Source: Bacteroidota bacterium
GTDB lineage: Bacteria; Bacteroidota; Ignavibacteria; Kryptoniales; JAKASW01
DNA length: 64,000 bases
Assembly: GCA_021789975.1 (NCBI GenBank)
Contig: JAJYIT010000001.1
Coordinates: forward strand, 12,247 to 76,246
Direction of reading: 5' to 3'
Shown here: piece by piece, positions 9,756 to 33,857 of the stretch
How the letters are laid out: each line of letters opens with the position of its first letter
How positions within the stretch are numbered: the stretch's first letter is position 1
Program-made: the position numbers and the translations under genes
Notes under the pieces: generated by a model
The model's input: only the letters and a program-made list of their open reading frames with translations
What the model was told of the DNA's origin: nothing
Databases searched by the model: none

Positions 9756-9791
9756 GGAACCTGATATACCTCTGCTTCGTTTTCTATTTAG

Positions 9792-14779: not shown

Positions 14780-14861
14780 CTCTAATCGTTTCGTATAATA
14801 TAGCTTGCGACTCTCGAAGATGGGAATTGCATCCCACCGCCGGTTGATTGCAGGAGGGTAC

Positions 14862-14890
14862 AAAAAAAACGGCGGAACTCGGTCCGCCGT
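14862..14890 (-). terminator. Rho-independent terminator of the 16632-14912 operon
   Basis: On the minus strand a perfect 8-bp stem acggcgga/tccgccgt with a 6-nt loop is followed by TTTTTTT, starting 22 nt after the stop at 14912. Confidence 0.85.
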
Positions 14891-14911
14891 CTGTTTCAAT
14901 CAATCATCAGC

Positions 14912-17973: not shown

Positions 17974-20040
17974 GTGCACCATCGGTTAAGAACCATCACG
18001 CTAGTTCTGTTTTTGTCGGCAGCAGCTCAAGGTCAGGTTTCTGACAACAGCTACTCAAGCATCGGCAACATCGGGCTGGCAATTACAAGTTTCGGACGGA
18101 TCGGCAATGGGTTCAGTGCGTCGTTTTGGCCTGTGCAGCCATCATGTGAATATCCCTTCACACCGGTTCGATCGCGGATCGAACACCTTTTTAGTGGGGG
18201 CATTTGGATCGGTGGTTACAAAAACGGTCAGGGTCCATTCGTAAGCACTGTAACCACAGACTACTATTCAAGCCCTTCTGAATTCACACAGCCTCGCGAC
18301 AGCGGGCTTACGGAGCGAAGCTCACTTCTCGACTCACGCTATTATTCGCCGGCCGCGGTTAGCCACCAGGATTTCGTCTCGGACTTCACAGACTCCAACA
18401 CCGTTGATCCGGGAACCGGGCAGGAAATTGTGGGTCATCATCCTCTCAACGTCTCGGTCCGCGAGGAAGCTTATTCATGGGAGTACCCGATTGCTAATTT
18501 CTTCGTCATCCTCAGCTTCAGGGTAACCAACACCGGCAACACCGCTATCGACTCGATGTTTGTCGGGTTTGTGAACGATTTCGTGGTGAGAAACACCAAC
18601 TACAGACTTCCGACAGAGGGAACATCCTTCTATAGCGGCACCGGGATTGGATATGTCGATTCCCTCAGGCTGGTTTATGCGTTCGATGCAGAACACAGGG
18701 CTAGCGACTTGCCGACGGACAACTATGTGTCGATGAAACTCCTTGGCGTCGATCCGGTAAGTGCTGTTGTCAAATCACAACCGGCCTATCTCGATTCGCT
18801 GAACAGCTACACTCACTTTTCTGCGTGGCAGTTCAGGGCATCGACGGGGGATGCGAATCTACTTTCTCCAAGTAACGACGCGCTTCGTTTTGAAAAAATG
18901 GAGACTTCGCTTCCGTCGAATTACTACAACGATCCTTCTCACCCAAGCTACATCGGCAAAGCAGGTAATAGATATTCTCTTCTTTCTGCCGGTCCGATCG
19001 AGCTGATGCCGGATTCCTCGGTCACGGTTGTGTTTGCGATCGTGTGTGCGCCGAAAACCGTCACGAGTAACCCCCTAGATTATCAGAACAACGCACTAGC
19101 ATCCCGGAAGGCTCTCTATGAAAATGCGACCTGGGCGCAGCGGACCTTCAACGGAGATGACAGAAACGGCGATGGTATTCTCCAGTCCGATGAGGATATG
19201 TATGGTGACGGGAAGATCCATCGTTATATATTTCCGAATATTCTTCCCCCGCCTCATGTGCATGTTGTGCCGGGAGACAGACAGGCGACTGTTTATTGGG
19301 ACGATACGCCTGAAAATGTGATCGATCCTCTTCTTAACAGGAAGAACTTCGAGGGATATCGACTTTACAAATCTAAACCCGGCTTCGACTTCGAAGGTAT
19401 TCAGGATCCATATGAAGAAATTGCAGGGTTCGACCTGATCGATTCGCTCGGTCTTGATACCGGGTTACCTGCCAGGATTATTCCGCCGGTGCAGTTTCCC
19501 GGCGATCCGTATCAATACGACTACAAGTTCACCGTCCCATTTCTTCTGAATGGGTGGCAATACGTCTTTGGCGTTGAAGCTTATGATAAGGGCGACCCGA
19601 CTTCCGGCACACCGAGCCAGGCTTCGGTGCGCGCGATGGGAAAAGTGTTCCCGGGACCGACTGCCTCGGCAGGCGACTCGGCGAGCGTCGGCGTCTTCCC
19701 TAATCCATATTATACAAAGGCTTATTGGGACGGTACCGGGGAGCGAGAAAAAAAGATTTACTTCTACAATCTTCCGGCAAGATGTGAAATCAGGATTTAC
19801 ACGATCGCCGGCGACATTGTGGCAACGCTGGAACATAATGCCGCGACTTACAACGGCTCAGACATACAGTGGTTCAAGCATTACGACTCAGACAACTCGC
19901 AACGTATGCCTGGGGCATTGCACGCCTGGGATTTGATATCGGATGCCGATCAGGCCGTGGCTACGGGTTTGTATTTATTTACCGTGAAGGATCTCAAGAC
20001 GGGCGATATAAAACGTGGGAAGTTTTTGATTATAAAGTGA
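17974..20040 (+). CDS. Secreted protein with an FN3-like domain, an acidic DxDxDG-like Ca-binding stretch and a divergent T9SS-type C-terminal domain
   Basis: From GTG 17974 (aggaaaaggg 7 nt upstream) the signal peptide is (M)HHRLRTITLVLFLSAAAQG. Other blocks are NGDDRNGDGILQSDEDMYGDG and HVHVVPGDRQATVYWDD...FEGYRLYKS. The C-terminus reads GVFPNPYY...IRIYTIAGDIVATL...GLYLFTVKDLKTGDIKRGKFLIIK. Confidence 0.65.
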   Translation: MHHRLRTITLVLFLSAAAQGQVSDNSYSSIGNIGLAITSFGRIGNGFSASFWPVQPSCEYPFTPVRSRIEHLFSGGIWIGGYKNGQGPFVSTVTTDYYSSPSEFTQPRDSGLTERSSLLDSRYYSPAAVSHQDFVSDFTDSNTVDPGTGQEIVGHHPLNVSVREEAYSWEYPIANFFVILSFRVTNTGNTAIDSMFVGFVNDFVVRNTNYRLPTEGTSFYSGTGIGYVDSLRLVYAFDAEHRASDLPTDNYVSMKLLGVDPVSAVVKSQPAYLDSLNSYTHFSAWQFRASTGDANLLSPSNDALRFEKMETSLPSNYYNDPSHPSYIGKAGNRYSLLSAGPIELMPDSSVTVVFAIVCAPKTVTSNPLDYQNNALASRKALYENATWAQRTFNGDDRNGDGILQSDEDMYGDGKIHRYIFPNILPPPHVHVVPGDRQATVYWDDTPENVIDPLLNRKNFEGYRLYKSKPGFDFEGIQDPYEEIAGFDLIDSLGLDTGLPARIIPPVQFPGDPYQYDYKFTVPFLLNGWQYVFGVEAYDKGDPTSGTPSQASVRAMGKVFPGPTASAGDSASVGVFPNPYYTKAYWDGTGEREKKIYFYNLPARCEIRIYTIAGDIVATLEHNAATYNGSDIQWFKHYDSDNSQRMPGALHAWDLISDADQAVATGLYLFTVKDLKTGDIKRGKFLIIK

Positions 20041-20116
20041 TGATCAGCTTTCGGCCTTATGCAGTCACTCTGCAGCCGATTGCCGATTTGTGAAAGTTAA
20101 AGAACAGGAGGCTCAA

Positions 20117-22351
20117 ATGAAGAAAGCTCTAGTGGTTTTACTTCTGGCTTTCGGGTACGCATTCGCACAGAATGTTCAGACGCCGCAGTCGTCCGCTGTG
20201 AACGCTGGTGGTGCGAAGAAAGCAGCCCGGATGGATACTCTCTCGCTGTACCAGGTCAACTATATTCCGATGGATTCGCTGAAGATAGCAGACTCTCTCG
20301 GGACTGGCGGACGGTCAAGTTTAACTAACTCGCCATACCTTGGTGATACGATTACCGTTACCGGCGTCGTGCTCGCAGACCCCGCGCTTATTGGCCTCAG
20401 CACGGGCAACACCTCGTTCTACATTCAGAGTACAGATAGCGCAGAATGGGGCGGGATGAACATATTTGGAAATACGACGACCGCCACAAGCGTCGGAATC
20501 ACATCCGTCGATACCGGTTATGTAATTGAACTGACCGGTGTCCTGACAAAATATTCTTCTTCTAGCATTACGGGGAATTTCGAATTGATGCCCATCGCTT
20601 CTCAAACTATCGGTGTCTTGAATGTGGGCGAACGCCCTGCACCTGTGGAAGTAAAATTGAGTGATCTTGTTTCGGGAGACGTTTCTTCGGGAGGGAAGGT
20701 GCATTTCTACCCGGGCACAAAGTATAAGAACTCGTATGTTATTCTTCGGAATCTTACGGTCAAGACCCGCTCCCAAAGCAGCACTTCGGGCCAGTGGACC
20801 GTAGTCCTGCAAGATTCGCTTGGCAACACGATAAGTCTTTACGACCCATCCAAGTATTTCACCGGTAGGTCATGGGGTGTGACTCCAAAGTTCGTTCCAC
20901 CACCTGTCGGATCGAAGCTCGATTATATCCGGGGGATTCTCGCAGCCTATGTGAGCTACGGATATGAGATAATACCGCTTTATCCCGGCGATCTGAAAAT
21001 CGGCGTTTATACTCCGAGTATTACCGCCACGGGGTTTTCAACCCGACGCTCCGAGGCGTTCCCGCTTCCATCACAGTCGGTAACCGTGAGAATGACTGCA
21101 TACTCCACAAATCCTGATACCAGCATCAAGATGGATTCAGCGGTTGTCTACTATTCCGTGGACAACGGTACATATACCGGAATGAAGATGAGTCCTGAGA
21201 GCAACGTTGGTGACACAATCACTTACGCGGCCGACATTCCGCCTCAAGCGGATGGCTCATTTGTGAAATATTTCTTCAACGCCTGGGCGAATTCCCTCGG
21301 GTCCATGACGCCCGATACATCCGGAACGGCATTCTTCTATTACGTCAGGGCAAGCGGATATACCATTAGGGACATCCAGTACACTCCGTTCCATGACGGC
21401 GACAGCGGCGCGACCGATCTCCGGGTAACATTCAACGGGATTGTGCAGGCCGACTCGACCGATTTTCCAGCCGAGATAGATCCTCGCAACCAGGCGACGA
21501 AGACCGCGTACGCCTACGTGCAGGATGCAGCCAAACCTTATAGCGGAGTTCTCTTGTACGGCTCACGAACTTATTCACTCCATCGTGGCGATAGCGTTTC
21601 AATAACCGGTGTTGTCAGCGAGTATTCGGGAATGACCGAGGTTACTGTGGACACCGCGATCGTAATTCAGACCGGCAAGTCAACCTACAAGCCTGTGGTT
21701 GTAAAAACCGGCGATGTCGGCGGCAAACCCAGCGGGGATTTCTCGGCTGAACCATGGGAGAGCGTCCTCTTAACATTTGACAGCATCACAGTTACTAACA
21801 ACGATCCCGATCCGAGCTATAGCATTACGAGTCCGAACGGGAGTTTCAGAGAATACATCGTGGATGACGGTTCGGGTGGATGCCGAGTCGATGACGATGG
21901 AAGCAATACATACAGCCCTGATCCACACGATACCACGCTCGGTTTCCGAATTATCCCGAAGGGTGCATTCTTTCAGAGCCTGACGGGACTTCTGAAGTAT
22001 TCCAATGGGAACTACAAGCTTGAACCGCGGACCAATGCGGACTTCAGTGCGATGACGGGTATTAAGCGTGAGACCACCAAGGGAGCGGCCACTTTTGCGC
22101 TCGAGCAGAATTATCCTAACCCGTTCAATCCCACTACAACCATCAGGTATTCGGTTCCGAAGGCAAGCATGGTGACGCTGAAGATATACAACATACTCGG
22201 TCAGGAAGTGACCACGCTCGTGAATCAGAGGCAGAACAGCGGGACATTCACCGTCTCATTTGACGCATCAAGGTTCGCAAGCGGCGTGTATCTGTACAGG
22301 CTCAGTGCGGGCGGTTTCAACCAGGTGAAGAAGATGATGGTGGTGAAATAG
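20117..22351 (+). CDS. Secreted T9SS cargo protein with two OB-fold-like modules related to the repeats at 7465-9384
   Basis: aggagg precedes ATG 20117. Signal peptide is MKKALVVLLLAFGYAFAQ. The modules read ..GDTITVTGVVLADP..FYIQS..GGMNIFG.. and ..GDSVSITGVVSEYSGMTEVTV. The CTD reads NYPNPFNPTTTIRYS...KIYNILGQEV...SGVYLYRLSAGGFNQVKKMMVVK. Confidence 0.85.
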   Translation: MKKALVVLLLAFGYAFAQNVQTPQSSAVNAGGAKKAARMDTLSLYQVNYIPMDSLKIADSLGTGGRSSLTNSPYLGDTITVTGVVLADPALIGLSTGNTSFYIQSTDSAEWGGMNIFGNTTTATSVGITSVDTGYVIELTGVLTKYSSSSITGNFELMPIASQTIGVLNVGERPAPVEVKLSDLVSGDVSSGGKVHFYPGTKYKNSYVILRNLTVKTRSQSSTSGQWTVVLQDSLGNTISLYDPSKYFTGRSWGVTPKFVPPPVGSKLDYIRGILAAYVSYGYEIIPLYPGDLKIGVYTPSITATGFSTRRSEAFPLPSQSVTVRMTAYSTNPDTSIKMDSAVVYYSVDNGTYTGMKMSPESNVGDTITYAADIPPQADGSFVKYFFNAWANSLGSMTPDTSGTAFFYYVRASGYTIRDIQYTPFHDGDSGATDLRVTFNGIVQADSTDFPAEIDPRNQATKTAYAYVQDAAKPYSGVLLYGSRTYSLHRGDSVSITGVVSEYSGMTEVTVDTAIVIQTGKSTYKPVVVKTGDVGGKPSGDFSAEPWESVLLTFDSITVTNNDPDPSYSITSPNGSFREYIVDDGSGGCRVDDDGSNTYSPDPHDTTLGFRIIPKGAFFQSLTGLLKYSNGNYKLEPRTNADFSAMTGIKRETTKGAATFALEQNYPNPFNPTTTIRYSVPKASMVTLKIYNILGQEVTTLVNQRQNSGTFTVSFDASRFASGVYLYRLSAGGFNQVKKMMVVK

Positions 22352-22376
22352 GTTCAAGAGCGAAATGATGGAATTT

Positions 22377-22508
22377 TGGAATGGTGGAGTCTTGCGCCGG
22401 CGGGCCGAGTCAACAACCAACTGCAGTAGATCTGGCAACTGCTTAAACAAATTCTCTTTTCACCTGCAGCGCGTGTTCAGATCATTACTCCATTACTCCA
22501 TCATTCCA
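22377..22508 (+). promoter_or_regulatory. Long-range 14-bp inverted repeat (potential RNA helix or operator) enclosing the probable start of the lipoprotein gene
   Basis: tggaatggtggagt (22377-22390) is complementary to actccatcattcca (22495-22508) at 13 Watson-Crick positions plus one G-U. The arms are separated by 104 nt that include GTG 22473. Confidence 0.4.
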
Positions 22509-24197
22509 TTGTTCCTTCTTTCTCTCTCCAGCTGCACGAAGCATTTCTCATCGATTGCCACGGGCAACCTTCCGCCCAAGACTTTTGTCTCGGCATACCC
22601 GTTCCGCGACTCGACGAGTTTTGCCAATTTCAATCCGCAGGCAAGCAATCTCGAGATTCACTGGTGGGCAAACGATCCGGACGGCCTCGTCGCCGGATTC
22701 ATTATCACGTTCGACAAAAAGCGCTGGACCTTCACGGCAAAGAACGACAGCGTGTTTGCCCTCCCGCTGTTCAGCAAAGACACCTCGTATATCTTCTCGG
22801 TGGCCGCCATTGACAACAGCTTCAAAGGACAACTGAGTGAGGGCGAAGAGGTAACCTTTGCAGACAAGAATGGAAATGGAAGGTGGGACAAAGGCGAGGT
22901 CTTCCCGAGTCTTGGTGATGCTGTCGACCCTGACCCGGCAACCTTGAAATTTCCAATTGCCAACACTCCGCCGCAAGTTGCGTATGTCATGAACAGCGGG
23001 CAGTTTTCCACCAGGCCTGATATCCCGGATACTACGTTCACTGTCGCTTCATTCGGCTGGCAAGGGACTGACATCGACGGTGACAATACAATTACCGATT
23101 ATTATATCGCGCTGAACGATACGCTCTCTCCTTCAAGCTGGGTTGAGCTGCCACCTCAGGCGCGGTTTGTAACCATTGAAGCCAGAACGTTCGAGGCCCA
23201 GACTGACACATCCACGGTGTCCTGCGACATTTATGCCAGCACATATCCTGCAATGTCGTATTCGCCTTTGAAAGCCAAGCTCCCCAACATGAAGTTGAAC
23301 GGCAACAACGTTTTCTATGTGAAAGCAAAAGATGTTGCGGACGCTTACAGTCCTGCGGTGAGAATGCCGGATAGTACTCATGCCTGGTACGTGAAAAAGC
23401 CTAAAGGCAATGTGCTGATTGTGAATGACTACGGTTCTCAGGATCGGTCTCTGTCGTTTTACGAAGACGTCTTCGACAATGTAAACGGCGGCTCTCTAAA
23501 AGGAGAATATGACGTCTGGGACATTCGAGCCGGCATGACGCCGACGAGTCCCCGGAAGGGAAATCTTGTTCCACCTTGCATTGTCCCCTCATTCCAGGAG
23601 ACACTGAAGCTTTTCAAATATGTCTTCTGGTACTCGGCGGACTACAAGAATTTTGACATCGCTCAGACTTCGATCGGAGGTTTCAGAAGTGCGGGCGGCA
23701 AAATATTCTTCAGCTACTATGCTCTGGATACCACTGCCGACAGATCGTCGCTTACTCAGCAGATGCGAGACTTCAGCGGTTCGGTCGATACCGTCATGGC
23801 AGACATCATCCGGGGGGCAACATCGGCGGCTCGTCCTGTAACTTCGACGGGATTCGTTTTCTCAGGTGCTTCTGTCCTTTCATCCGATTCTACAGAATAT
23901 CCGAATCTCGTTCGCGACGGACCTGGATCAAATCCTGCAGACGGGGGAAAAGCAGTGTGGAATCTCCGCGGATTTTCTCCGAGCATCGATGCGACAGTGA
24001 TTTACCGTGTCGAGCCTTTCGGTTCTTACGGTCCCGGCAACCCGCCGCCTGTGCTTGGAGTGCTGAGCGGCGACAGGTCGGTTTTCCTTTTGGGTGTGCC
24101 ACTTTATCGATTCAACGGCAACGACACTCCGCCTTCAGCGAACACCCGCGCGGCTAAATTGATTTACCGGGTGTTTCATGACTTCGGAGCATTCTGA
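22473..24197 (+). CDS. Hypothetical lipoprotein of the envelope cluster
   Basis: From GTG 22473 the N-terminus is (M)FRSLLHYSIIPLFLLSLSSC|TKH, containing a lipobox. Internal W..DPDG-type blocks are HWWANDPDGLVAGF and GWQGTDIDGDNTITDYY. The ORF-track ATG 22365 would add 36 non-signal residues. Confidence 0.6.
   Translation: MFRSLLHYSIIPLFLLSLSSCTKHFSSIATGNLPPKTFVSAYPFRDSTSFANFNPQASNLEIHWWANDPDGLVAGFIITFDKKRWTFTAKNDSVFALPLFSKDTSYIFSVAAIDNSFKGQLSEGEEVTFADKNGNGRWDKGEVFPSLGDAVDPDPATLKFPIANTPPQVAYVMNSGQFSTRPDIPDTTFTVASFGWQGTDIDGDNTITDYYIALNDTLSPSSWVELPPQARFVTIEARTFEAQTDTSTVSCDIYASTYPAMSYSPLKAKLPNMKLNGNNVFYVKAKDVADAYSPAVRMPDSTHAWYVKKPKGNVLIVNDYGSQDRSLSFYEDVFDNVNGGSLKGEYDVWDIRAGMTPTSPRKGNLVPPCIVPSFQETLKLFKYVFWYSADYKNFDIAQTSIGGFRSAGGKIFFSYYALDTTADRSSLTQQMRDFSGSVDTVMADIIRGATSAARPVTSTGFVFSGASVLSSDSTEYPNLVRDGPGSNPADGGKAVWNLRGFSPSIDATVIYRVEPFGSYGPGNPPPVLGVLSGDRSVFLLGVPLYRFNGNDTPPSANTRAAKLIYRVFHDFGAF
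22483..22522 (+). repeat. Degenerate 8-nt periodic tract (CATTNNTC)x5 at the 5' end of the lipoprotein gene
   Basis: The units are cattactc|cattactc|catcattc|cattgttc|cttctttc. Confidence 0.5.
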
Positions 24198-24324
24198 AGC
24201 AAGTCAAATGTCAACTCTCAAATTCGCAAGTCAGGATTCAGAGCTGAAATTCCCGTGGTCTCGGAGTTGAAAAGATTTGAGTACGAGCCGGAACATGGAA
24301 GTTGAAGTCGGAGATGATCGTGTC

Positions 24325-27195
24325 ATGAATAAACGGACGGCTTTAGCATTTGGGTTATGGCTTTGCGTTTTGAGTTTTGCCTTTTCTCTTTTCTCTCCTT
24401 CCTTCGCGCAGCAGCGAGGCAGCATTCAAGGCAAGGTCATTGATGCGACAAAGAGCGAGCCGCTTATCGGTGTCAACGTCCTGATAAAAGGAACTTACTA
24501 TGGCGCAACGACGGATGTCGATGGGAAATTCGAGATAAAGAACGTCGCAGCCGGACAATACACTTTGAATTTCCGCCTTATCGGGCACAAGGAATTGGAA
24601 TACACGGGAGTTGTGGTGAAAGCGGGAGATGCCACCGTGGTCAACACGAAGCTGCAGGAGACCGCTTTGACGCTCGGACAGGAAGTCGTTGTCGTCGGAC
24701 AAAAGCCGATGATGGACCCGGCAGAGACTCAGAGTGCGACGACGATTTCCTCAAAAGATATACAGGTATCTGCCGTACAGGATGTCAAAGATGTCGTCTC
24801 ACAACAAGTCGGTGTGGTTGCTGCCGATAACGAAATTCACATTCGCGGCGGTAGATCATATGAAAACGCATATCTCTTGAACGGAATTAATATCCAGGAC
24901 CCGCTATCAGGCACGGGATTTGGCCTGCAGTTGAGTTCGAACTCGATAGGTGAAATGGAGGTCATTACCGGAGGTTTCAACGCCGAATACGGACAGGCGA
25001 CGAGCGGAATAATAAATGTTAAGACAAAGGAGGGCGGGAGCAAATACGATCTCTTCGTCCAATATAAAACGGACAACTGGGGTCTCGACAAGAACTCAAA
25101 GTCCAATTTTAATTCAGATGACTACGAGGCAAATGTCAGTGGACCGGAACCGATTACCAGCTACATCCTGCCGGCGATCGGAATCGATATCCCGGGCCAG
25201 ATTACTTTGTTCGGGAGCTTTGCTGCAGGTTTCACAGATGGCCAGGTCCTCTGGGGTCAACGGTATCAAAATGGTGAGGTCGTCGATTACAAAATCTATC
25301 TCCCTTCCCATTTGAACTCTTCAATATTTTACGGAACCAGGTTTGCGCCAAGGCTTTCCAATGCATGGTATGGTCTCGGCAAAATCACCTACAAGCCAAT
25401 GCAGACCCTGAAGATCTCATACTCATATAATGGAAATGTCGGCATAAACGAGAACACGCAGGAACTTCAGACCACGCTCGAATATGTAGAGCCTACACCG
25501 GGATATCAGTACAAGTTTCAGAACATATTGGGAAATGCAGACGTGTACACGCATGTCAGCGATATGCAGGCTCTTGACATAACGCAGACTCTCAGTCCGA
25601 AAGTCTACTATGATTTAAAGCTGGCACATTTCTTTACCCACCTCCGGGCAGATGCAAACGGACTCTATTGGAATCAATACCAGCAGCCTTACGATGTGGT
25701 GACATTGCCGCCTCATTACTACAATACCACGAGCGACACGATCGGAATAATACCAGGCGACGGTTTTTATGATACCGGCAACGCCGACACCTGGCACGAT
25801 CACTTCTTTGTCAACAACGAAATGAAGTTCGACATAACCGATTATTTCTCAGAACAGAACAAGTTCAAGGCCGGGTTGGATATGAACTTTCAGGAGATGC
25901 AATATGTCGACATCTACGAGCCATGGATCGGCGTGATGGGGTTGAACAATAATGTTTACCATGTTTACCCGGCGGTCGGTTCCGCATACGGTCAGGAAAC
26001 CATTACCACGAACGGGATGATATTGAATTTCGGATTGCGCTTCGATTACTGGTTCCCCGGGAAATATGTGGACGATGCGGTCAACAATCCGCAGGTCATA
26101 ACCATACCACAGGCGATACGGGATCAGTACTACCGTGACACCTACAACTTTTTTGGTAGAAGGTGGAAAGGCAGACTCAGTCCAAGGCTCGGTATTTCTC
26201 ATCCGATATCCGATAACCAGACCCTATTCCTCAACTACGGTCATTTCTCAAAATGGCCCAGGGCGCAGTTCGTTTACGCAAAATTGCAGCCGAGCACTGC
26301 GATGTCCACGTTTCAATCTTTCGGTAATCCGAATCTGAATCCGGAGACCACCGTGAGTTACGAGCTCGGACTCCGCAATCAGTTTTCGAGCGACGACATA
26401 CTGACGGTGACCGCTTACTATAAAGACATCTTCGACTACGTCCAAACCAAACAGGCGCAGATCACCTCTGCAGCGCTAATCGGGCAGAGTTTCATTACGT
26501 ATGTGAATTCGGACTATGCACGCGCCCGAGGAATTGAAGTTGAATACAAAAAAAGGATCGGGAACTGGTTCAACGGCTCCATAAGCGGATCATATTCCGT
26601 CGCAACCGGTAAATCGAGCTCCGAGCAGGAAGGTGTTCTGGCAGTCCAGGGACTCCTTACCGAGATGATGAATGAATCTTTTGTCTCCTGGGATCGTCCT
26701 CTCCAGGTTTCTGCGATCGCATCGCTGTATAACCAAAAGCAAAACGGCCTTTTCGGATTTGGGAGAGGAATACTGGATGACTTCGAGACGTACTTCAGAG
26801 TCTTCTTCGAAAGCGGCAAAAGATACACACCATATTACTTCACCGGCGCTTATTCGCTGAACGGGGCGCCGCTATATGCCGTGAACACTAACGACCAGTA
26901 TGGCAATATTGGAGCCAACTGGTTTTACGTTGATTTCAACTTCAATAAATATTTCAGGGTGGCGGGTCTGGACATGACGCTCATGGTTGAGGTGAAGAAC
27001 CTCTTCAACAATCTCAACTCGGATATCATCAATCCGGTTACAGGACGGGCGTACCAGCTCGGTGATCCGGTACCGCCATCATGGAACGACCCTCTTCATC
27101 CCGAGCTCCAGGCGCCTCTCGATCCGTTCCCGCTGGACCAGTCGAGGTACCTCCCGACGAGGAATATCAAGATTGGAGTGGCGGTGAGACTGTGA
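24325..27195 (+). CDS. TonB-dependent outer-membrane receptor with an N-terminal CarboxypepD_reg domain
   Basis: ATG 24325 gives the signal peptide MNKRTALAFGLWLCVLSFAFSLFSPSFAQQ. The CarboxypepD_reg block is GSIQGKVIDATKSEPLIGVNVLIKGTYYGATTDVDGKFEIKNV. The plug reads IHIRGGRSYENAYLLNGINIQDP, followed by a long beta-barrel. Confidence 0.9.
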   Translation: MNKRTALAFGLWLCVLSFAFSLFSPSFAQQRGSIQGKVIDATKSEPLIGVNVLIKGTYYGATTDVDGKFEIKNVAAGQYTLNFRLIGHKELEYTGVVVKAGDATVVNTKLQETALTLGQEVVVVGQKPMMDPAETQSATTISSKDIQVSAVQDVKDVVSQQVGVVAADNEIHIRGGRSYENAYLLNGINIQDPLSGTGFGLQLSSNSIGEMEVITGGFNAEYGQATSGIINVKTKEGGSKYDLFVQYKTDNWGLDKNSKSNFNSDDYEANVSGPEPITSYILPAIGIDIPGQITLFGSFAAGFTDGQVLWGQRYQNGEVVDYKIYLPSHLNSSIFYGTRFAPRLSNAWYGLGKITYKPMQTLKISYSYNGNVGINENTQELQTTLEYVEPTPGYQYKFQNILGNADVYTHVSDMQALDITQTLSPKVYYDLKLAHFFTHLRADANGLYWNQYQQPYDVVTLPPHYYNTTSDTIGIIPGDGFYDTGNADTWHDHFFVNNEMKFDITDYFSEQNKFKAGLDMNFQEMQYVDIYEPWIGVMGLNNNVYHVYPAVGSAYGQETITTNGMILNFGLRFDYWFPGKYVDDAVNNPQVITIPQAIRDQYYRDTYNFFGRRWKGRLSPRLGISHPISDNQTLFLNYGHFSKWPRAQFVYAKLQPSTAMSTFQSFGNPNLNPETTVSYELGLRNQFSSDDILTVTAYYKDIFDYVQTKQAQITSAALIGQSFITYVNSDYARARGIEVEYKKRIGNWFNGSISGSYSVATGKSSSEQEGVLAVQGLLTEMMNESFVSWDRPLQVSAIASLYNQKQNGLFGFGRGILDDFETYFRVFFESGKRYTPYYFTGAYSLNGAPLYAVNTNDQYGNIGANWFYVDFNFNKYFRVAGLDMTLMVEVKNLFNNLNSDIINPVTGRAYQLGDPVPPSWNDPLHPELQAPLDPFPLDQSRYLPTRNIKIGVAVRL

Positions 27196-27320
27196 GGTCT
27201 ATTTTGAGTTTCACATTTCGGGTTGCGAACTGGCGGGAACCAGTTTTCCGGAGTCCGCGGAGTGGAGCGGACTTCGTGAGAGGCCATAAATCAGAAGCCG
27301 GGAGTAATAAGCTGGAAATC

Positions 27321-28424
27321 GTGAACCAGGCATGCCCGGTAATCCATGAATCTCCTGCCCTGCGGGATCCCGCATACCCCCGCAGAATAATTGAGCGGGA
27401 CAATAATCCATCCATCCGTTTTTGGAATACTCCATCAATCCATTGCTCCATTCTTCCGTTCCTAATTTTTTCCCTGGTGCTTGTTGTCTCCACCGCGTCC
27501 GCCCAACTCCTTCCCGTTCTCGGTTCCCAGCGGGTCGGCATAACCGCGGCGGATTTTCTGAAGATAGGCGTGGGCGGGCGCGCAAACGCAATGGCAGAAA
27601 GTTTCGCGGCAGTCGACAACGATGCCTACGCACTCTTTTATAACCCGGCCGGGATAACGCAGTTCGACGGAACCGAGGTGGCAATTTCACATTCGACGTG
27701 GTTTGTCGGCCTGCAGCACGATTTCATCGGCGGGGTTTACCATCTCGATGCGCAAAACAGCTTCGGGCTCTCGGTGATTTCCCTTCAATCGGAGGATATG
27801 CCAGTCACGACTGAATTCCAGCCGTACGGTACGGGAGCTTATTTCAAATATGGCGACCTTGCACTCGCTGCTACTTATGCAAGAAAGATGACCGACAAAT
27901 TTAGCTTCGGCGTAAGTGTGAAATTTATCGATGAGACACTTGCGCAGCTCAGCATGCGCGGAGTCCTGATAGACCTTGGGACATACTATTGGACCGGACT
28001 CGGGACGACCAGATTCGCGGTGTCGGTCAGCAATTTCGGTGGTCAGCTTACTCCATCCGGCTCGGTAAGCCTCGTCGATGGAACTACGGTATCAAGCTTC
28101 CAGAGTTTTTCACCCCCGACAATATTCAGAATCGGGTTTGCATTTGAACCGTACCAGGACAAATCCAATAAATTCACCACTTCTGTACAGTTGAACCACC
28201 CTGCGGACAATGCTGAGAATCTTGCGCTCGGAGCAGAATATTCGTACCATTCTACTTTCTATCTCAGGGGTGGCTACAAGATCAACGTGATCGAGCAAAG
28301 CTATTCGCTTGGAGCCGGTGTAAGAGTCGATGCAAGGTTTGCACTGGTCTATTTCGACTACGCCTTCACTCCCTACCAGCGGCTCGGAGACGTCCACAGG
28401 TTTTCACTAAACTTGAGATTTTGA
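27321..28424 (+). CDS. PorV/PorQ-like (FadL/UPF0164-like) outer-membrane beta-barrel protein; start codon uncertain
   Basis: ...ILPFLIFSLVLVVSTASAQ|LLPVLGSQRVGITAADFLKIGVGGRANAMAESFAAVDNDAYALFYNPAGI fits the PorV/PorQ N-terminal signature (G.ra.aMGgA..A..D..a...NPAg). The C-terminus is ...RFSLNLRF. There is no in-frame ATG near the signal peptide; GTG 27321 is the nearest conventional start. Confidence 0.65.
   Translation: MNQACPVIHESPALRDPAYPRRIIERDNNPSIRFWNTPSIHCSILPFLIFSLVLVVSTASAQLLPVLGSQRVGITAADFLKIGVGGRANAMAESFAAVDNDAYALFYNPAGITQFDGTEVAISHSTWFVGLQHDFIGGVYHLDAQNSFGLSVISLQSEDMPVTTEFQPYGTGAYFKYGDLALAATYARKMTDKFSFGVSVKFIDETLAQLSMRGVLIDLGTYYWTGLGTTRFAVSVSNFGGQLTPSGSVSLVDGTTVSSFQSFSPPTIFRIGFAFEPYQDKSNKFTTSVQLNHPADNAENLALGAEYSYHSTFYLRGGYKINVIEQSYSLGAGVRVDARFALVYFDYAFTPYQRLGDVHRFSLNLRF
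27425..27456 (+). repeat. Second 8-nt periodic tract (CATNNNTC-like, x4), carrying a 17-mer nearly identical to one at 22495-22511
   Basis: The units are gaatactc|catcaatc|cattgctc|cattcttc. actccatcaatccattg (27428-27444) matches actccatcattccattg (22495-22511) at 16 of 17 positions. Confidence 0.5.
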
Positions 28425-28560
28425 AGTGAACAAAGAGATGGAAATCAAGAAGGTAAGAAGATATGAAGATCAGAAGACGAGAAACGGAACTCTGGAAATC
28501 CCAATAACCTCCGAGCGTCCAATCTTCTTGCCTTCTCATCCTCTCATCTCCTCCTTTTCC

Positions 28561-29706
28561 GTGTTCGCCCTTCACCTCGCTGTCGCACTTCTTTTGTTGG
28601 CACCGGGCTGCAGTGAAAAGGCAAATGTAGTCGACATCTCGACCCTGCCGACAGCTACCGGCCAGGCGATCATGGACACGAGCTATATCCAGATACAGCC
28701 AGCGTGGCAGGGCTTCAGTAATCCCGAGAAGATAAAGATTGGGTACGACTACATATTGTACGTGACTGAGCCCGACAACAACAGGATCGTGATGGTCGAC
28801 CTTGCAGGCCGCAGACTCGGCTATTCTCAATATGTCAAGAGACCTGCCGCGGTGACCGAAGACAGGAAGTTCAATCTCATAATCCCGTGTGAGTATGATA
28901 CTACCGTAAGCGGCACTGTCGTTACAGTTGCCGCCATCGCGAAGATACGGTTGTTCAATTACGACCACAATATTGTTGCGGCGCCGGTTGAGATTGTGTA
29001 CCACGAAACTCCAAAGCAGCAAATCACTCGCGACGCCGCAGGTAACCTGATCACCGGAAGGGAGTTCACCGGCGTTGCTGTTTTACCTGACAACAGCTAT
29101 TACATTACTCGTTCCGGAAACAACAACTCAAGCCCGGTCGACCCCGATAATATGGTCCTTCATTTTGACAAGAACGACAGAATTTACTCGAGCGACTTCA
29201 TCGACCTTGTGCCGAGCCTCGTTCCAACCGGGACCGGTTTTGTAGCGATAAACAAGCTTAGCGGGATTACTACTTTCAACACAAGACAATACGGAACGGA
29301 TTTCATCCTCACCCAGACCGATCCTGCCAATGCGTTCAAGGTTAAATGGATTACATTCAATCCGGGCAGCGAGCTCTTTGCCCCGAGCTGGAGTTCTCAC
29401 TTCAGCCTCGACCCCACGAAATACGCGGGCGGGAAGATGCCGGATATACTCTCGGGCGTATTCGTCGACCCGGAGGCCGTCATGATTGACGAGCGCAGCA
29501 ACATCTTTGTAGTCGATGGTTCGCTGGACAGTCTGATGAAGTTCGACCTGACCGGTACTTTGTTGCGTGAATCATTTGGACCTTCAAAGTCAGGGAACGC
29601 TCTTCTGCATCCGACGGGTTTGACGTACAACAACAGGATCGTCTATATATGCGATTCAGGACATGATCGAATTATCAGGTATGAGCTGTCAACCGACCTT
29701 AAGTGA
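28561..29706 (+). CDS. NHL-repeat beta-propeller lipoprotein
   Basis: From GTG 28561 the N-terminus is (M)FALHLAVALLLLAPGC|SEK. NHL-like blades include IFVVDGSLDSLMKFDLTG and LLHPTGLTYNNRIVYICDSGHDRIIRYEL. The ORF-track start 28426 would add 45 residues before the signal peptide. Confidence 0.65.
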   Translation: MFALHLAVALLLLAPGCSEKANVVDISTLPTATGQAIMDTSYIQIQPAWQGFSNPEKIKIGYDYILYVTEPDNNRIVMVDLAGRRLGYSQYVKRPAAVTEDRKFNLIIPCEYDTTVSGTVVTVAAIAKIRLFNYDHNIVAAPVEIVYHETPKQQITRDAAGNLITGREFTGVAVLPDNSYYITRSGNNNSSPVDPDNMVLHFDKNDRIYSSDFIDLVPSLVPTGTGFVAINKLSGITTFNTRQYGTDFILTQTDPANAFKVKWITFNPGSELFAPSWSSHFSLDPTKYAGGKMPDILSGVFVDPEAVMIDERSNIFVVDGSLDSLMKFDLTGTLLRESFGPSKSGNALLHPTGLTYNNRIVYICDSGHDRIIRYELSTDLK

Positions 29707-29807
29707 TTCTGTTAACTGCGGCTTCCAGTTTCCTTAAGTTGCGTCTTTGCAGCACCATTCTTGTTCTCCATCTCTCACCTTTTTATATTGTCTGCACAAA
29801 ATTCCTT

Positions 29808-30470
29808 ATGATCAAGAGCCGTATCATACCACTCATCGGTATCGCATCGTTGGCTATTGCAATGGCAGGTTGTGTCGCTTCGTCGCCTCGGTTCGTTGAC
29901 AATAACAACGGAAGCGTGAGCAATAAGCCTCGCTTCTCATTTGACGAAACCCCCTCTGAACTCAAAGTCGAAAAAGAGGAAGAGGAAGTCGAGAACGATC
30001 ATCAGGTGAACATCTCGAAACTTAGGACCGAGATAGGCGAAATTGGAAACGCACCCGCTGCGGATTCCGCCGATTATTTCAAATCCGAGTTGATGCGGGT
30101 AATAGACTCATACCTCGGAACACCCTACAGGATCGGAGGGGACACCCATTCTGGAATGGACTGTTCCGGTTTCTCAATGGTTGTGTTCGATTCGGTTTTC
30201 AACATACCTCTGCCGCACAACGCCCGGGAACAATCCAGGCTCGGCGAGAGAGTCTCCAAAGATGATCTACGGGTTGGCGATCTGGTATTTTTCCGAACGG
30301 TAGGGAGGCGGATTAGTCATGTCGGGATTTATCTTGGCGACGGACTTTTCGCGAACGCGAGCGTTTCGGAAGGCGTGACGATATCATCTCTTGACAGCAC
30401 ATATTATAAACGAAGATACGCAGGTGCAAGAAAACTAGTTCCTATGGATATAACTAATGGCCTTCAATAG
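29808..30470 (+). CDS. NlpC/P60 (C40) family cell-wall peptidase lipoprotein
   Basis: Signal/lipobox is MIKSRIIPLIGIASLAIAMAGC. The catalytic Cys is in GGDTHSGMDCSGF and the His in ISHVGIYLG. Confidence 0.85.
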   Translation: MIKSRIIPLIGIASLAIAMAGCVASSPRFVDNNNGSVSNKPRFSFDETPSELKVEKEEEEVENDHQVNISKLRTEIGEIGNAPAADSADYFKSELMRVIDSYLGTPYRIGGDTHSGMDCSGFSMVVFDSVFNIPLPHNAREQSRLGERVSKDDLRVGDLVFFRTVGRRISHVGIYLGDGLFANASVSEGVTISSLDSTYYKRRYAGARKLVPMDITNGLQ

Positions 30471-31908
30471 CCTCAATGAATTCCTTGACTTCCTGAGGAG
30501 AAAAGGGGAGCTGAAAGTCATCGACGTCAAAGTCGATGCAAAGCTTGAAATCACCGAGATTGTGGACAGGACAGTGAAGTCGGCCGGTCCGGCACTTCTC
30601 TTCACGAATGTGAAAGGGAGCGAGATCCCGCTGGTGACGAATATTTTCGGGACGAAGCAGAGGATGTCGTGGGCGCTCGGCGTGCAAGATCTCGATGCGA
30701 TAGGGAAGAGACTCTCCGAGATGTTGAACCTCAAAGTACCTGAGTCGCTTCTTGGAAAGATGGCAATGATGCCGCGCCTAATGGAAATGGCGAAGTTTCC
30801 TCCGAAAGTTGTCAAGAAGGCATCTTGCCAGGATATTGTTATAAATGAGAAAGACGTCGACCTCTACAAGTTTCCAGTCACCACTTCATGGCCGCAGGAT
30901 GGAGGCCCATATATTTTGTTCGGCCAGGTGGTTACGAAGGATCCCGATACGGGGGTTCGCAACATGGGTCTCTACCGGCTGCAGGTCCTCGACAAGAATA
31001 CCACAGCCATGCACTGGCAGCGGCATAAGGGCGGCGCCATGCATTTCAAGAGGGCAAAAGAGAAGGGAATGGAAAGACTCGAAGTCGCAGTCGTCATCGG
31101 TTCAGATCCTGCGACGATGTACAGTACCAGTGCGCCGCTACCTGAAAGCATCGAGGAGTATTTGTTCGCCGGCTTCCTGCGTGAAGAAGCGGTCGAGCTT
31201 GTGAAATGTAAGACTGTTGATCTCGAAGTTCCGGCAGAATCCGAAATAGTCTTAGAGGGATATGTGGATACGGGCGAGGATTTGCGTCTCGAGGGGCCTT
31301 TCGGTGACCACACCGGGTTTTATTCTCTTGCCGATTATTATCCGGCGTTTCACGTTACGGCAGTAACGACCCGCAAGAACCCTGTCTTCGTTTCTACCGT
31401 CGTGGGCCAGCCGATTATGGAAGATGACTGGATGGGTTATGCAACAGAACGCATTTTCCTCCCGCTTGCAAAACTCGTTCTCCCGGAACTTGTTGACTAT
31501 CATATGCCTTTCGAAGGAATATTTCATAATCTGGTTTTTGCTTCTATCGACAAACAGTATCCCGGACATGCATTCAAGGTCATGAACGGCTTGTGGGGAC
31601 TTGGACAGATGATGTTTGCGAAGGTCATCGTCGTTGTCGACAAAGATGTGAACGTCCAGAACACTTCGGAAGCATGGTGGTACGCGCTCAATAATATCGA
31701 CCCTCAGCGAGATGTGGTGTTTTCCAAGGGTCCGCACGATGTGCTCGACCATTCCTCGCAGTATTTCAGCTTTGGGTCGAAGATGGGCATCGATGGAACG
31801 AGGAAGTGGCCGGACGAAGGCTTTACGCGCCCGTGGCCGGACAAGATAGAAATGTCTGATGAAATTAAGAAATTAGTTGATTCAAAATGGAAATCCTACG
31901 GTCTTTAA
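30457..31908 (+). CDS. UbiD-family (prenylated-FMN dependent) decarboxylase, likely in quinone biosynthesis
   Basis: Typical UbiD blocks are LNEFLDFLRRKGELKVIDVKVD, GPALLFTNVKGSEIPLVTNIFG, GGPYILFGQVVTKDPDTGVRNMGLYR and EGPFGDHTGFY. Confidence 0.85.
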   Translation: MAFNSLNEFLDFLRRKGELKVIDVKVDAKLEITEIVDRTVKSAGPALLFTNVKGSEIPLVTNIFGTKQRMSWALGVQDLDAIGKRLSEMLNLKVPESLLGKMAMMPRLMEMAKFPPKVVKKASCQDIVINEKDVDLYKFPVTTSWPQDGGPYILFGQVVTKDPDTGVRNMGLYRLQVLDKNTTAMHWQRHKGGAMHFKRAKEKGMERLEVAVVIGSDPATMYSTSAPLPESIEEYLFAGFLREEAVELVKCKTVDLEVPAESEIVLEGYVDTGEDLRLEGPFGDHTGFYSLADYYPAFHVTAVTTRKNPVFVSTVVGQPIMEDDWMGYATERIFLPLAKLVLPELVDYHMPFEGIFHNLVFASIDKQYPGHAFKVMNGLWGLGQMMFAKVIVVVDKDVNVQNTSEAWWYALNNIDPQRDVVFSKGPHDVLDHSSQYFSFGSKMGIDGTRKWPDEGFTRPWPDKIEMSDEIKKLVDSKWKSYGL

Positions 31909-31972
31909 GCGTGCAAGCTTTGAGTTGCAGGATGCATGGGAGGGAGTTGGGTTGATAGATTCAAAATTCAAA

Positions 31973-32434
31973 ATGGAAAATTCAAGAATTGACATTCTTT
32001 TGACAATTGCTTTGGCGATCATGTTGTCATCTTGTTCGAAGAAACCTGCTGAGTACTACAGAGAAGGTATGCAGGAATTCACTGCTGGGAAGTACGGTGT
32101 TGCGCAGGAGACTTTCGCAAAAGGAATCAAGCACGGGGGAAACGACAGTCTTTACGCGGGTTTCGTAGCGTCGAATCTTGTCACCGGAAAATACCCGCAG
32201 GTCAACGTGGCTTACAACGGACTGAGCGCAGGTATACGTCGACATTTGACGGATCTATACGGGCAGAGAACGCTTGGCATCATCGGTATTACTTCGGATA
32301 TAATCCCGTATAACACTTCCGGGAAAAACAGGATACCTTCGGATTTTCCGCAGACGATTGCTCTGCAAGCTGTCGCCGACTATCAGGAGTATCTTGCACT
32401 TAAGAAAGAGGTCGACAAAGATATCGGTAAATGA
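31973..32434 (+). CDS. Hypothetical lipoprotein (TPR-like helix pair)
   Basis: ATG 31973 gives MENSRIDILLTIALAIMLSSC|SKK. There is an ATGA stop/start overlap with the next gene. Confidence 0.55.
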   Translation: MENSRIDILLTIALAIMLSSCSKKPAEYYREGMQEFTAGKYGVAQETFAKGIKHGGNDSLYAGFVASNLVTGKYPQVNVAYNGLSAGIRRHLTDLYGQRTLGIIGITSDIIPYNTSGKNRIPSDFPQTIALQAVADYQEYLALKKEVDKDIGK

Positions 32435-32973
32435 AACCGATCGGCGCCTTGCTCATATTGATTACCGCCCCTTTCTTTTCTTCGTGTCAATTTGAAAAGA
32501 TCACTCTTCGGATGAATCCTGCCGTCAGTTGGTTTGTGGGTATCGCCGACGAAGTCTCCAGCTCGTTCTTGGGTTGTCCTACTTCGGTCGATAGCGAAGT
32601 CGATTTTGCGGTCGATTCGATCGGCTATTACAGGACGACAGATCTTGGCACCGGGATAACCAACTATGTTACAGAGGTTGCCGTATCCCGAAAGGGAGTT
32701 GAGCAAGCAGCGGTCTTGCGGCTCACACCTGACAATGGCCGGACAATTGATACAACCTGGAACGGAAAAGTCACACACGCGAGATTTGAATTCGAGTCTG
32801 AAGCACCGCCTGTCTCCGCGGAGATCGATCCGCGTGGGGGCTCGCACAGCGACATCAATTTGTTCAACAATAGCCTTGAGGTAAGCTCCTCTTCAGATCC
32901 GGTCCTCAAATGGACTCAGAGTATTCTCAGCCTGTACCAGCTCGCTTTGGCAACCGCAGGTGGAATCCTGTGA
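32431..32973 (+). CDS. Hypothetical lipoprotein
   Basis: The N-terminus is MKPIGALLILITAPFFSSC|QF. It is translationally coupled on both sides. Confidence 0.55.
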   Translation: MKPIGALLILITAPFFSSCQFEKITLRMNPAVSWFVGIADEVSSSFLGCPTSVDSEVDFAVDSIGYYRTTDLGTGITNYVTEVAVSRKGVEQAAVLRLTPDNGRTIDTTWNGKVTHARFEFESEAPPVSAEIDPRGGSHSDINLFNNSLEVSSSSDPVLKWTQSILSLYQLALATAGGIL

Positions 32974-33470
32974 ACATAGGAACCATCGGATCGGTTAGGT
33001 TGGGGATCGGCAAGTCTTTAAGAAATTGGAGATTGTTGTTGCTGTATTACGTCTTCAATCTCATCACGGCAATTACTCTTACGCTGCCGATCGTTCCGGT
33101 ATCGGAAAGAGATTTTTCGAGGAGTGTGGCTGGCCAGCGGATCATGTCAGGTGTTAGCTATGCGTGGTACGGTGAGTTCGTCCGCGTCAATCACAGCCTC
33201 TTCGACTCTATATTGCCGCAGATCCTGTTCGTGTCTGCGGTCTACGTCATACTGGAGGTGTTTTGGGGCGGCGGGTTCTATTCAGCTTTTACGAGAAGCG
33301 GACGGCAAGATGTCGGAGAGTTCCTTACTTCGGCGTGGAGAAATTTTCTGCCTCAGCTTACAGTGAGCACAGTTGATGCCGTGGTACTGTGTCTGATTTG
33401 TCTTGTTTCGATTCGCTTGCTGGACTTCCAGATTGGCCCTTCCAGTCTTGGCTGGCATGGGAATCTATAG
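32970..33470 (+). CDS. Polytopic membrane protein, N-terminal part; ends at an in-frame TAG and continues as 33492-33851
   Basis: GTG 32970 overlaps the upstream stop (gtga). TM segments include LLLLYYVFNLITAITLTLPIV and ILFVSAVYVILEVFWGGGFY. TAG 33468-33470 lies in the same frame as the next ORF. Confidence 0.5.
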   Translation: MNIGTIGSVRLGIGKSLRNWRLLLLYYVFNLITAITLTLPIVPVSERDFSRSVAGQRIMSGVSYAWYGEFVRVNHSLFDSILPQILFVSAVYVILEVFWGGGFYSAFTRSGRQDVGEFLTSAWRNFLPQLTVSTVDAVVLCLICLVSIRLLDFQIGPSSLGWHGNL

Positions 33471-33491
33471 TACCTGCTGTCAGCAGTTGTA

Positions 33492-33851
33492 GTGATTGGG
33501 ACTACAGAAATGGTATCCGACTTTGTGAGGGCATCAGTAGTCGTTGAGAATGGCGGATTGTGGAGCAAGATAAAACGCGGACTCCAGTTTGCTTTTGGCC
33601 ATCCGATTGCGACAGGCGGTGTGTATATTATCGGCTGTGTTATGAGTCTGATTTCCCTGGCTGTCTATCTGGTGCTTTTCTCCGCGGGAACGGCAACGAC
33701 GACTCCGGGAGTTTCGCTTGCAGTCTTGTTATTGCAGGTCATTATTTTGGTTAGGATTTTTTTCAAATTGGTCTCTTATGCAAGTGAGGCGACGCTTTAC
33801 AAAGAGAATCAGATAGAAGTTATAAATGTTAAACTGGAAATTTTGGAGTAG
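33492..33851 (+). CDS. Membrane protein, probable C-terminal part of the 32970 gene
   Basis: It is in the same reading frame as 32970-33470. The 21 nt between them encode YLLSAVV, which is hydrophobic. TM segments include GVYIIGCVMSLISLAVYLVLF and VLLLQVIILVRIFF. Confidence 0.5.
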   Translation: MIGTTEMVSDFVRASVVVENGGLWSKIKRGLQFAFGHPIATGGVYIIGCVMSLISLAVYLVLFSAGTATTTPGVSLAVLLLQVIILVRIFFKLVSYASEATLYKENQIEVINVKLEILE

Positions 33852-33857
33852 ATTGAA

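Follow-up and report, generated by a model that had tools for sequence, protein, structure and literature searches.

A conserved gene module of Kryptoniota and Ignavibacteria that sets a PorV/PorQ-family barrel beside a TonB-dependent transporter and type IX secretion cargo

What is a barrel of the PorV/PorQ family doing in a gene cluster with a TonB-dependent transporter, two secreted proteins and two lipoproteins? The question is raised by six open reading frames (ORFs), here called G1 to G6, that follow one another on the plus strand at 17974-29706 of a 64,000-nucleotide stretch of contig JAJYIT010000001.1 (assembly GCA_021789975.1), from a bacterium of the Kryptoniales; the whole stretch is called the window below. 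An earlier note on this DNA had described the run of six plus-strand genes, and the ORFs are indeed present where it placed them, the N-terminus of G5 excepted. We find that the six genes are kept together, in order and on one strand, across Kryptoniota and Ignavibacteria. We also propose, as a reading that we judge to be evenly balanced between right and wrong, that their products make up a single machine of the outer membrane, which would catch a polymer outside the cell, most likely a nucleic acid such as DNA, and import the fragments.

Six genes kept together

Do the six genes form a unit, or are they neighbors by chance? An alignment of the G3 family served as the pattern for a scan of genomes, one from each species. 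In 403 stretches a relative of G3 turned out to be encoded, and the 80 best loci were taken for comparison. Genes in these 80 loci were assigned by ORF-level blastp with at least 50% coverage, in place of an earlier tblastn mapping in which some G2 assignments fell on the G1 ORF through the similarity of the C-terminal sorting domains (CTDs) of the two proteins. G1 to G6 are complete, in the same order and on the same strand, in 53 of the 80 related loci, which come from Kryptoniota and Ignavibacteria; the other 27 lack at least one gene, and most of them stop at a contig edge. At many of the gene junctions in the related loci, the genes overlap by 4 bp. The closest relatives, with G3 proteins 79-81% identical to that of the window, are metagenome-assembled genomes (MAGs) labelled Candidatus Kryptoniota. 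Compared with the Ignavibacteria orthologues, G4 and G5 are the most alike, each at about 57% identity (55-61% for G4), followed by G1 at 45%, and by G2, G3 and G6 at 33-37%.

The surroundings of the module differ between the two lineages. Close Kryptoniota have a cytochrome c gene upstream of the module, and NlpC/P60 and menaquinone (UbiD) genes downstream, whereas in Ignavibacteria genes for lipoyl synthase and a 2-oxoacid dehydrogenase are found upstream and ATP synthase genes further downstream. Because order and strand have been kept while the flanks differ, the six genes are best seen as a selected unit, and the arrangement is far beyond chance. The idea of a coupled envelope cluster had been staked on synteny in related genomes, and it is upheld by these loci. 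The module is present in MAGs classed as Ignavibacterium album and as Melioribacteraceae, and the cultured relatives Ignavibacterium album and Melioribacter roseus probably carry it as well. A literature search combining PorV, Ignavibacteria, Kryptonia, TonB and the secretion system of type IX (T9SS) found no description of the module. The presence, in two deep lineages of the Fibrobacterota-Chlorobiota-Bacteroidota group, of a PorV/PorQ-family barrel in a TonB-transporter operon with two CTD proteins and two lipoproteins thus appears to be undescribed.

Where does the unit begin and end? The composition of the DNA gives no border, as the GC content is even over the region at 0.49-0.51, and tRNA and Rfam scans of the window came back empty. 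Promoter-like and terminator-like sites within the cluster do not exceed those in shuffled controls, and are therefore uninformative on transcript structure. The co-directional run goes on beyond 29706 with an NlpC/P60 gene, which shares 4 bp with the end of G6. The plus-strand genes at 29703-34418 comprise this NlpC/P60 gene, a futalosine-pathway menaquinone decarboxylase gene (TIGR03701, 642 bits), several small ORFs and a peptide deformylase gene; they are syntenic in close Kryptoniota relatives only. The gene calls of G1 (688 aa) and G2 (744 aa) agree with those on a public 12.3-kb contig whose proteins are identical; there, G3 is called at 609 aa. One related locus, L031, from an Ignavibacterium album MAG, has its G2 in two ORFs, 7688-8494 and 8503-9861 (L031:7688-9861), a split that may be due to a frameshift, a pseudogene or an assembly error.

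The barrel, the transporter and their partners

G5 (27450-28424, plus strand, start uncertain) encodes an outer-membrane beta-barrel of the PorV/PorQ family with about 305 mature residues. The protein scores 201.5 bits on the PorV_fam model NF033709, for which the cut-off is 90, and 32.7 bits on Pfam PorV (PF19572) against a cut-off of 27, and the profile of its family matches the structure of PorV from F. johnsoniae (6h3i_F) at 5e-14. The earlier assignment of the product of 27321-28424 to the PorV-type barrels is therefore sound. Which member of the family is it? On the equivalog models for PorV, PorQ and PorV2, G5 reaches 76.3, 75.7 and 76.9 bits, below the respective cut-offs of 250, 220 and 325. 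Judged by its sequence, G5 represents a subfamily of PorV/PorQ to which none of the named subtypes corresponds, though the failure to reach the named equivalogs may reflect phylogenetic distance, the models being mainly from Bacteroidota. G5 may be a paralogue dedicated to the module, or else the general PorV of the organism.

The start of G5 is a puzzle of its own. Homologues begin about 20 aa ahead of the motif AQLxPxLG, which in the window puts the signal peptide near 27450, and there is no ATG, GTG or TTG near this point in the window DNA. The nearest canonical in-frame start is a GTG at 27321, which adds about 60 N-terminal residues; the extensions given by the canonical starts, 60 aa long or longer, are not conserved in close relatives. 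After G4 a spacer of about 245 nt is left, in the stretch 27196-27450. It may be that translation of G5 begins at a non-canonical codon, either the ATT at 27450 or the ATC at 27438, or that the spacer holds an unrecognized element.

G4 (24325-27195, plus strand, in an ORF that opens at 24277) encodes a TonB-dependent transporter with a CarboxypepD_reg extension, a TonB-box-like segment, a plug and a barrel of the 22-strand type. The CarboxypepD_reg TonB-dependent receptor that had been read here is confirmed by Pfam matches above cut-off to CarbopepD_reg_2, to Plug (43.3 bits against 23.9) and to TonB_dep_Rec_b-barrel (69.8 bits against 27); a PDB search with the single sequence matched the CarboxypepD_reg domain only. 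The TonB-box-like segment, QEVVVVG, lies between the N-terminal extension and the plug, and occupies the same position in 68 of 68 aligned homologues, at least 90% of which share one Val and the Gly. Is G4 a SusC? The protein fails the SusC/RagA model TIGR04056, with 87 bits, over the N-terminus only, against a cut-off of 368, and no SusD-type family was matched in the eight proteins scanned (G1 to G6 and the products of two downstream genes). The cluster is thus not a classical polysaccharide utilization locus (PUL), in agreement with the earlier note.

G2 (20117-22351, plus strand, in an ORF that opens at 20090) encodes a 744-aa protein with a signal peptidase I (SPI) signal peptide, MKKALVVLLLAFGYAFAQ. 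Its passenger consists of two DUF5689-like OB-fold modules, at about residues 45-295 and 431-660, which flank an Ig/CBM56-like domain, and a type-A CTD follows. Por_Secre_tail is matched at 3e-12, with 47 bits against a cut-off of 27 for Pfam PF18962 and 46.3 bits against 23 for TIGR04183, so that, at the level of sequence, G2 is an unambiguous type-A T9SS cargo protein, and one with two OB-fold modules, as had been claimed. Within the G2 family Por_Secre_tail is found in 22 of 22 members, the tRNA_anti-codon OB fold in 15, CBM_56 in 13 and DUF5689, weakly, in three. What kind of OB fold is it? G2 has a weak match (2.7e-6) to an OB segment of the ExeM/NucH nuclease model, and bona fide DUF5689 proteins match the same N-terminal OB segment. 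When G2 without its CTD is aligned by hhalign with a family of DUF5689-repeat cargo proteins, whose reference members pass Pfam DUF5689 at 1.8e-23 and 1.1e-13, the result is a probability of 99.3% with an E value of 1.5e-20, and both OB modules match. By profile-profile comparison, then, both OB modules of G2 belong to the DUF5689 family.

A larger protein of this kind is encoded upstream. The gene at 5578-9687 (plus strand) specifies a 1369-aa T9SS cargo protein with three OB modules of the DUF5689 or ExeM/NucH type and a type-A CTD; DUF5689 is matched at 1.8e-23 in three stretches, the ExeM_NucH segment at 2.4e-19 and Por_Secre_tail at 4.5e-8. The protein is 51% identical to the product of L009:2848-5316, a gene located just upstream of G1 in locus L009. 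DUF5689-repeat cargo genes adjoin the module in several loci, and orthologues of the 5578-9687 gene do so in other Kryptoniota; in the window this gene lies about 8 kb upstream, and it is a probable accessory gene of the module. Between the 5578-9687 gene and the module there is a restriction-modification cluster on the minus strand, at 11697-14899, with genes for an MT-A70 methylase, a BglII-type endonuclease and an N6/N4 DNA methylase; this cluster may be an insertion that parted the DUF5689 cargo gene from the module.

The first gene of the module, G1 (17974-20040, plus strand, in an ORF that opens at 17950), encodes a secreted protein of 688 aa with an SPI signal peptide. Its N-terminal domain, of about 420 aa (17974-19260), is strongly conserved and in the alignment has an invariant lone cysteine, Cys58, in the motif QPSCEYP; G1 also has conserved His residues. 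There follow a DxDxDG-like calcium-loop stretch, one FN3 domain and a tail of about 115 aa with two insertions. No Pfam or NCBIfam family is matched by G1, and the profile of its family gave chance-level or FN3 matches only against PDB sequences. The AlphaFold2 (AF2) model has a mean confidence (pLDDT) of 61, too poor to read, and its Foldseek matches are confined to the C-terminal FN3/Ig tandem.

Is G1 then a T9SS cargo protein? The G1 of the window has no match to the Pfam or NCBIfam models of sorting domains, and the members of its family have weak matches only, to FlgD_ig in seven of 23 and to Por_Secre_tail in two of 23. By hhalign, however, the G1 tail aligns end to end with the G2 CTD, with two insertions, at 80% and an E value of 1.5e-5, whereas a control with the FN3 region of G1 gives 1%. 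Tail and CTD share a PNP(F/Y) start, a central IY..G..V strand and a terminal K. The profile of the N-terminal domain reaches 2087 representative clusters, 919 of them at E values of 1e-10 or less, and of ten distant relatives scanned, eight carry a C-terminal Por_Secre_tail or FlgD_ig, with BNR or PKD modules. Because the tail aligns with the G2 CTD and the relatives of the N-terminal domain carry CTDs, G1 is very probably a T9SS cargo protein with a divergent type-A sorting domain, its passenger being without a Pfam model or an assigned function. The N-terminal domain represents a large uncharacterized domain family with an invariant Cys, most of whose scanned members are T9SS cargo. Of the features that had been ascribed to G1, the FN3 domain and the calcium-loop stretch are to be seen and the divergent CTD is very probable, and with the sorting domain found throughout the G2 family, the proposal that both proteins end in T9SS sorting domains is strengthened. 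We had considered the G1 CTD to be unusually conserved (64%, as compared with 44% over the remainder of G1) and hence a retained anchor; this idea was dropped, as the ordinary CTD of G2 is conserved at 51% against about 32%.

The two lipoproteins are of different build. G3 (22473-24197, plus strand, in an ORF that opens at 22365) has its lipidated Cys at residue 57 of the 610-aa ORF, and this Cys is invariant in 18 homologues. The AF2 model (pLDDT 73) shows an alpha/beta domain of flavodoxin/Rossmann-like build, preceded by two or three FN3-like domains that hold the WW.DPDG blocks. Of the 18 family members 16 match FN3, with no other significant family; Foldseek comparison of the model with the PDB gave no match at E values of 1e-3 or less, and the G3 profile gave chance-level or FN3 matches only against PDB sequences. 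G6 (28561-29706, plus strand, in an ORF that opens at 28426) has a lipobox Cys that is invariant in 22 homologues, and the profile of its family matches NHL propellers in the PDB (Pizza designs, TRIM71 and PknD) with E values from 3e-40 to 4e-19. The descriptions of G3 as a lipoprotein with W..DPDG blocks and of G6 as an NHL-repeat beta-propeller lipoprotein are thus both supported.

What might be captured, and how?

Which known systems does the module resemble? B. thetaiotaomicron needs the six-gene locus ddbABCDEF in order to deplete exogenous DNA. The TonB-dependent transporter of this locus, DdbC, has a DUF5689 protein, DdbD, as its predicted DNA-binding partner; DdbD caps DdbC in an AlphaFold3 prediction, and its structure resembles the dsDNA-binding domain of p202 (PMC12478041). 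In Riemerella anatipestifer the homologous pair, a CarboxypepD_reg barrel, RA0C_RS04915, and a DUF5689 protein, RA0C_RS04920, is essential for natural transformation, and the pair is proposed to carry DNA over the outer membrane (PMC8459023). By analogy, the module would work most like the Ddb system and the Riemerella pair, and like PULs in general.

The module shares with ddb a DUF5689 partner protein, here G2, and in many relatives secreted nucleases, in a PUL-like logic without SusD. It shares with the Riemerella pair the combination of a CarboxypepD_reg outer-membrane barrel and a DUF5689 protein. The differences are considerable. The DUF5689 protein of the module is two-module T9SS cargo with a CTD, and G3 stands between its gene and G4, whereas DdbD is a lipoprotein. 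The module adds the PorV/PorQ-family barrel, the NHL-propeller lipoprotein, the FN3 and alpha/beta lipoprotein and G1; further, the cluster in the window is without a nuclease, and the nucleases of its relatives are tandem-HKD or EEP enzymes with CTDs. The Riemerella locus, as far as PMC8459023 reports, has no PorV-like barrel, and its DUF5689 protein has no T9SS CTD. A plasmid search for a DUF5689 and transporter pair, as a proxy for DdbCD, returned only an unrelated Paenibacillus match, and the competence genes ComEC, DprA and ComF were not seen among the window ORFs scanned. With SusC/SusD PULs and RagAB the module has in common a co-directional arrangement and a large CarboxypepD_reg TonB transporter together with surface lipoproteins and secreted hydrolases. 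It differs from them in the lack of a SusD, in the failure of G4 on the SusC/RagA model and in having binders that would be displayed by the T9SS and not only lipidated.

How would such a machine work? Because of their C-terminal sorting domains, G1 and G2 would be exported over the outer membrane by the T9SS. G2 would then show its two DUF5689-type OB modules at the cell surface and bind DNA there. G5 would hold the CTD-bearing proteins at the surface next to the transporter, as PorV does with cargo CTDs and PorQ with PorZ. For Bacteroides transporters that are not of the SusC type, adjacent genes commonly encode unrelated lipoprotein lids (bioRxiv 10.1101/2023.03.17.533168), and G3 and G6 may likewise be surface partners or lids of G4. 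The polymer would be broken down by T9SS-secreted hydrolases, which in relatives are encoded beside the module; none is adjacent in the window. G4, powered by TonB, would carry the fragments, presumably oligonucleotides or DNA, into the periplasm. Imported DNA might supply phosphorus, nitrogen or carbon, or its uptake might be the outer-membrane step of natural transformation.

The genes found beside the module in related loci speak to the substrate. At least 1.5 kb is available beyond G6 in 62 loci, and in 31 of these the next gene, often with a 4-bp overlap, encodes a tandem-HKD protein, a T9SS cargo protein with two PLDc_2 domains, FN3 and an N-terminal OB module of the ExeM/NucH type. The tandem-HKD proteins match the HKD nuclease NucT at 61-65 bits, nearly over the full length though below threshold, as compared with 24 bits for cardiolipin synthase. 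In locus L070, from Melioribacteraceae, an EEP-family enzyme with a CTD comes directly after G6, and in L076 a PLD-type gene and then an EEP gene follow G6. In some loci a PLD match seemed to lie within the cluster; it arose from the matching of one CTD to another and is an artefact. In nine loci, all of one sub-lineage (L033, L034, L040, L043, L050, L051, L056, L059 and L062), the added enzyme is of another kind: an M4 thermolysin of about 1040 aa, with an FTP propeptide and a T9SS CTD, is encoded between G2 and G3 (e.g. L050:6476-10108). An ORF of about 160 aa without a family match is inserted alongside the protease in these loci, and their G2 is enlarged to about 1040 aa. In all, enzymes of nuclease type adjoin the module in 32 loci and the protease in nine. 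The earlier note saw in the OB modules, by eye, a hint of a nucleic acid substrate; this hint gains independent support from the profile match of G2 to DUF5689 proteins and from the nucleases after G6 in relatives.

Several observations weigh against nucleic acid as the substrate. No nuclease is found in the cluster of the window or among the other window ORFs scanned, and the gene after G6 is that for NlpC/P60. Among the 62 loci that leave room after G6, 25 are without any of the three hydrolase types next to the module, and in six the M4 protease is the only one. The protease of the nine loci speaks for protein and not for DNA, or for a platform that is indifferent to its substrate, and the PLD and EEP families include phospholipases as well as nucleases. 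The G2 of the window reaches no Pfam DUF5689 threshold; its gene stands apart from G4, and with its SPI signal peptide and CTD it is not a lipoprotein as DdbD is. The likeness seen between G4 and DdbC or RA0C_RS04915 is one of CarboxypepD_reg and barrel architecture, and G1, the best conserved of the proteins that are not barrels, is without an assignable function. Given the lack of a nuclease in the window cluster, and the protein substrate suggested by nine related loci, we hold the nucleic acid reading at about an even chance; its main rivals are a scavenging platform with a flexible substrate and an accessory complex of the T9SS.

Might the substrate then be set by whichever hydrolase lies nearby? 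The module would in that case be a general polymer-scavenging platform, comparable to RagAB and PULs with binders displayed by the T9SS, and in the window would serve for protein, peptides or cell-wall debris. The nine loci with a secreted M4 thermolysin fit such a platform, as does the peptidoglycan peptidase of the NlpC/P60 family whose gene overlaps the end of G6 in the window; so do the CBM56-like domain in 13 of 22 G2 homologues and the way in which the core stays fixed while the accessory hydrolase varies. We think it unlikely nonetheless, as G2, the sole conserved binding protein with an identifiable fold, is of the DUF5689/OB type in all lineages, neighbors of the nuclease type are far commoner than the protease, and the NlpC/P60 linkage is restricted to close Kryptoniota relatives. 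Lipid scavenging would have secreted phospholipases of the PLD and EEP superfamilies free lipids for G5 as a FadL-like barrel, with G4 taking the head groups. The N-terminus of G5 does match FadL/Toluene_X at 2e-8, and the PLD-type proteins have weak cardiolipin-synthase matches. Yet the Toluene_X match amounts to 34 bits over 39 residues, against 201 bits on the PorV/PorQ model, the PLD-type proteins are closer to NucT than to cardiolipin synthase and carry the ExeM/NucH-type OB module, and G2 has OB folds of the DUF5689 type; a role in lipid uptake is accordingly most improbable.

A further possibility is that the module belongs to secretion itself and not to uptake. The T9SS attachment complex of Porphyromonas gingivalis is made up of PorU, PorV, PorZ and PorQ. 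In an accessory or attachment complex of the T9SS, G5 would take the role of PorV or PorQ, G1 would be a surface enzyme that retains its CTD, like PorU or PorZ, and G6 a propeller partner, and the cargo genes would merely cluster beside the machinery by which their products are processed. The resemblance is real in that a PorV/PorQ-family barrel is encoded with CTD-bearing surface proteins and a beta-propeller. The invariant lone Cys58 and the conserved His residues of G1 would suit a surface enzyme, the adjoining cargo genes are a mixture (nuclease, protease and OB proteins), and the wide spread of G3 relatives, with some 57% identity of G4 and G5 across lineages, is more typical of machinery than of a nutrient system. 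Against this, the operon has in its middle the gene for a complete TonB-dependent transporter, G4, whose plug and conserved TonB box are in place, and such a transporter has no role in known attachment complexes. There is no Peptidase_C25 match, of the PorU type, in G1 to G6; the propeller G6, unlike PorZ, is a lipoprotein without a CTD; G5 stays below the equivalog cut-offs already given; and the relatives of the G1 N-terminal domain are ordinary and diverse T9SS cargo. Lacking a C25 peptidase, and with a propeller that bears no CTD, the module is not an attachment complex of the P. gingivalis type, and an accessory complex in the wider sense strikes us as rather improbable.

If DNA uptake is the better reading, a more specific scheme can be put forward, though we regard it as doubtful. 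Substrate-binding lids delivered by the T9SS instead of being anchored by lipid, and tethered through their CTDs to a dedicated PorV/PorQ-type barrel in the transporter operon, would form the outer-membrane DNA-uptake route of Kryptoniota and Ignavibacteria, be it for feeding or for transformation, and would represent a new architecture of TonB-dependent uptake.

Other features of the window and wider meaning

Two other features of the window recall parts of the module. On the minus strand, at 49009-55279, a second and shorter CarboxypepD_reg TonB-dependent receptor (52940-55279) is encoded upstream of an IF-2B-family gene, a CbiQ-type component and two ABC ATPases; this cluster looks like an uptake operon of the energy-coupling factor or cobalt type, unrelated to the six-gene module. 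Near the start of the window, the end of ORF 132-1055 (849-1119, plus strand) has a tblastn match to the CTDs of several cargo proteins, at an E value of about 1e-10. The ORF is without a Pfam match and the CTD match is divided over two frames, so that the region may hold a frameshifted CTD-bearing gene.

What would the module mean for the bacteria that carry it? Kryptoniota and Ignavibacteria are common in hot springs, sediments and bioreactors, and extracellular DNA is a large pool of phosphorus and nitrogen in such places. If the proposal is right, DNA uptake by a DUF5689 protein and a transporter, as in the ddb system of Bacteroides and in Riemerella competence, would reach beyond Bacteroidota to Kryptoniota and Ignavibacteria. 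The module would also join type IX secretion and TonB-dependent import, which are usually studied separately, in one conserved operon. The module moreover provides a testable context for three conserved families that are without a specific function, namely the N-terminal domain of G1, G3 and the subfamily of G5.

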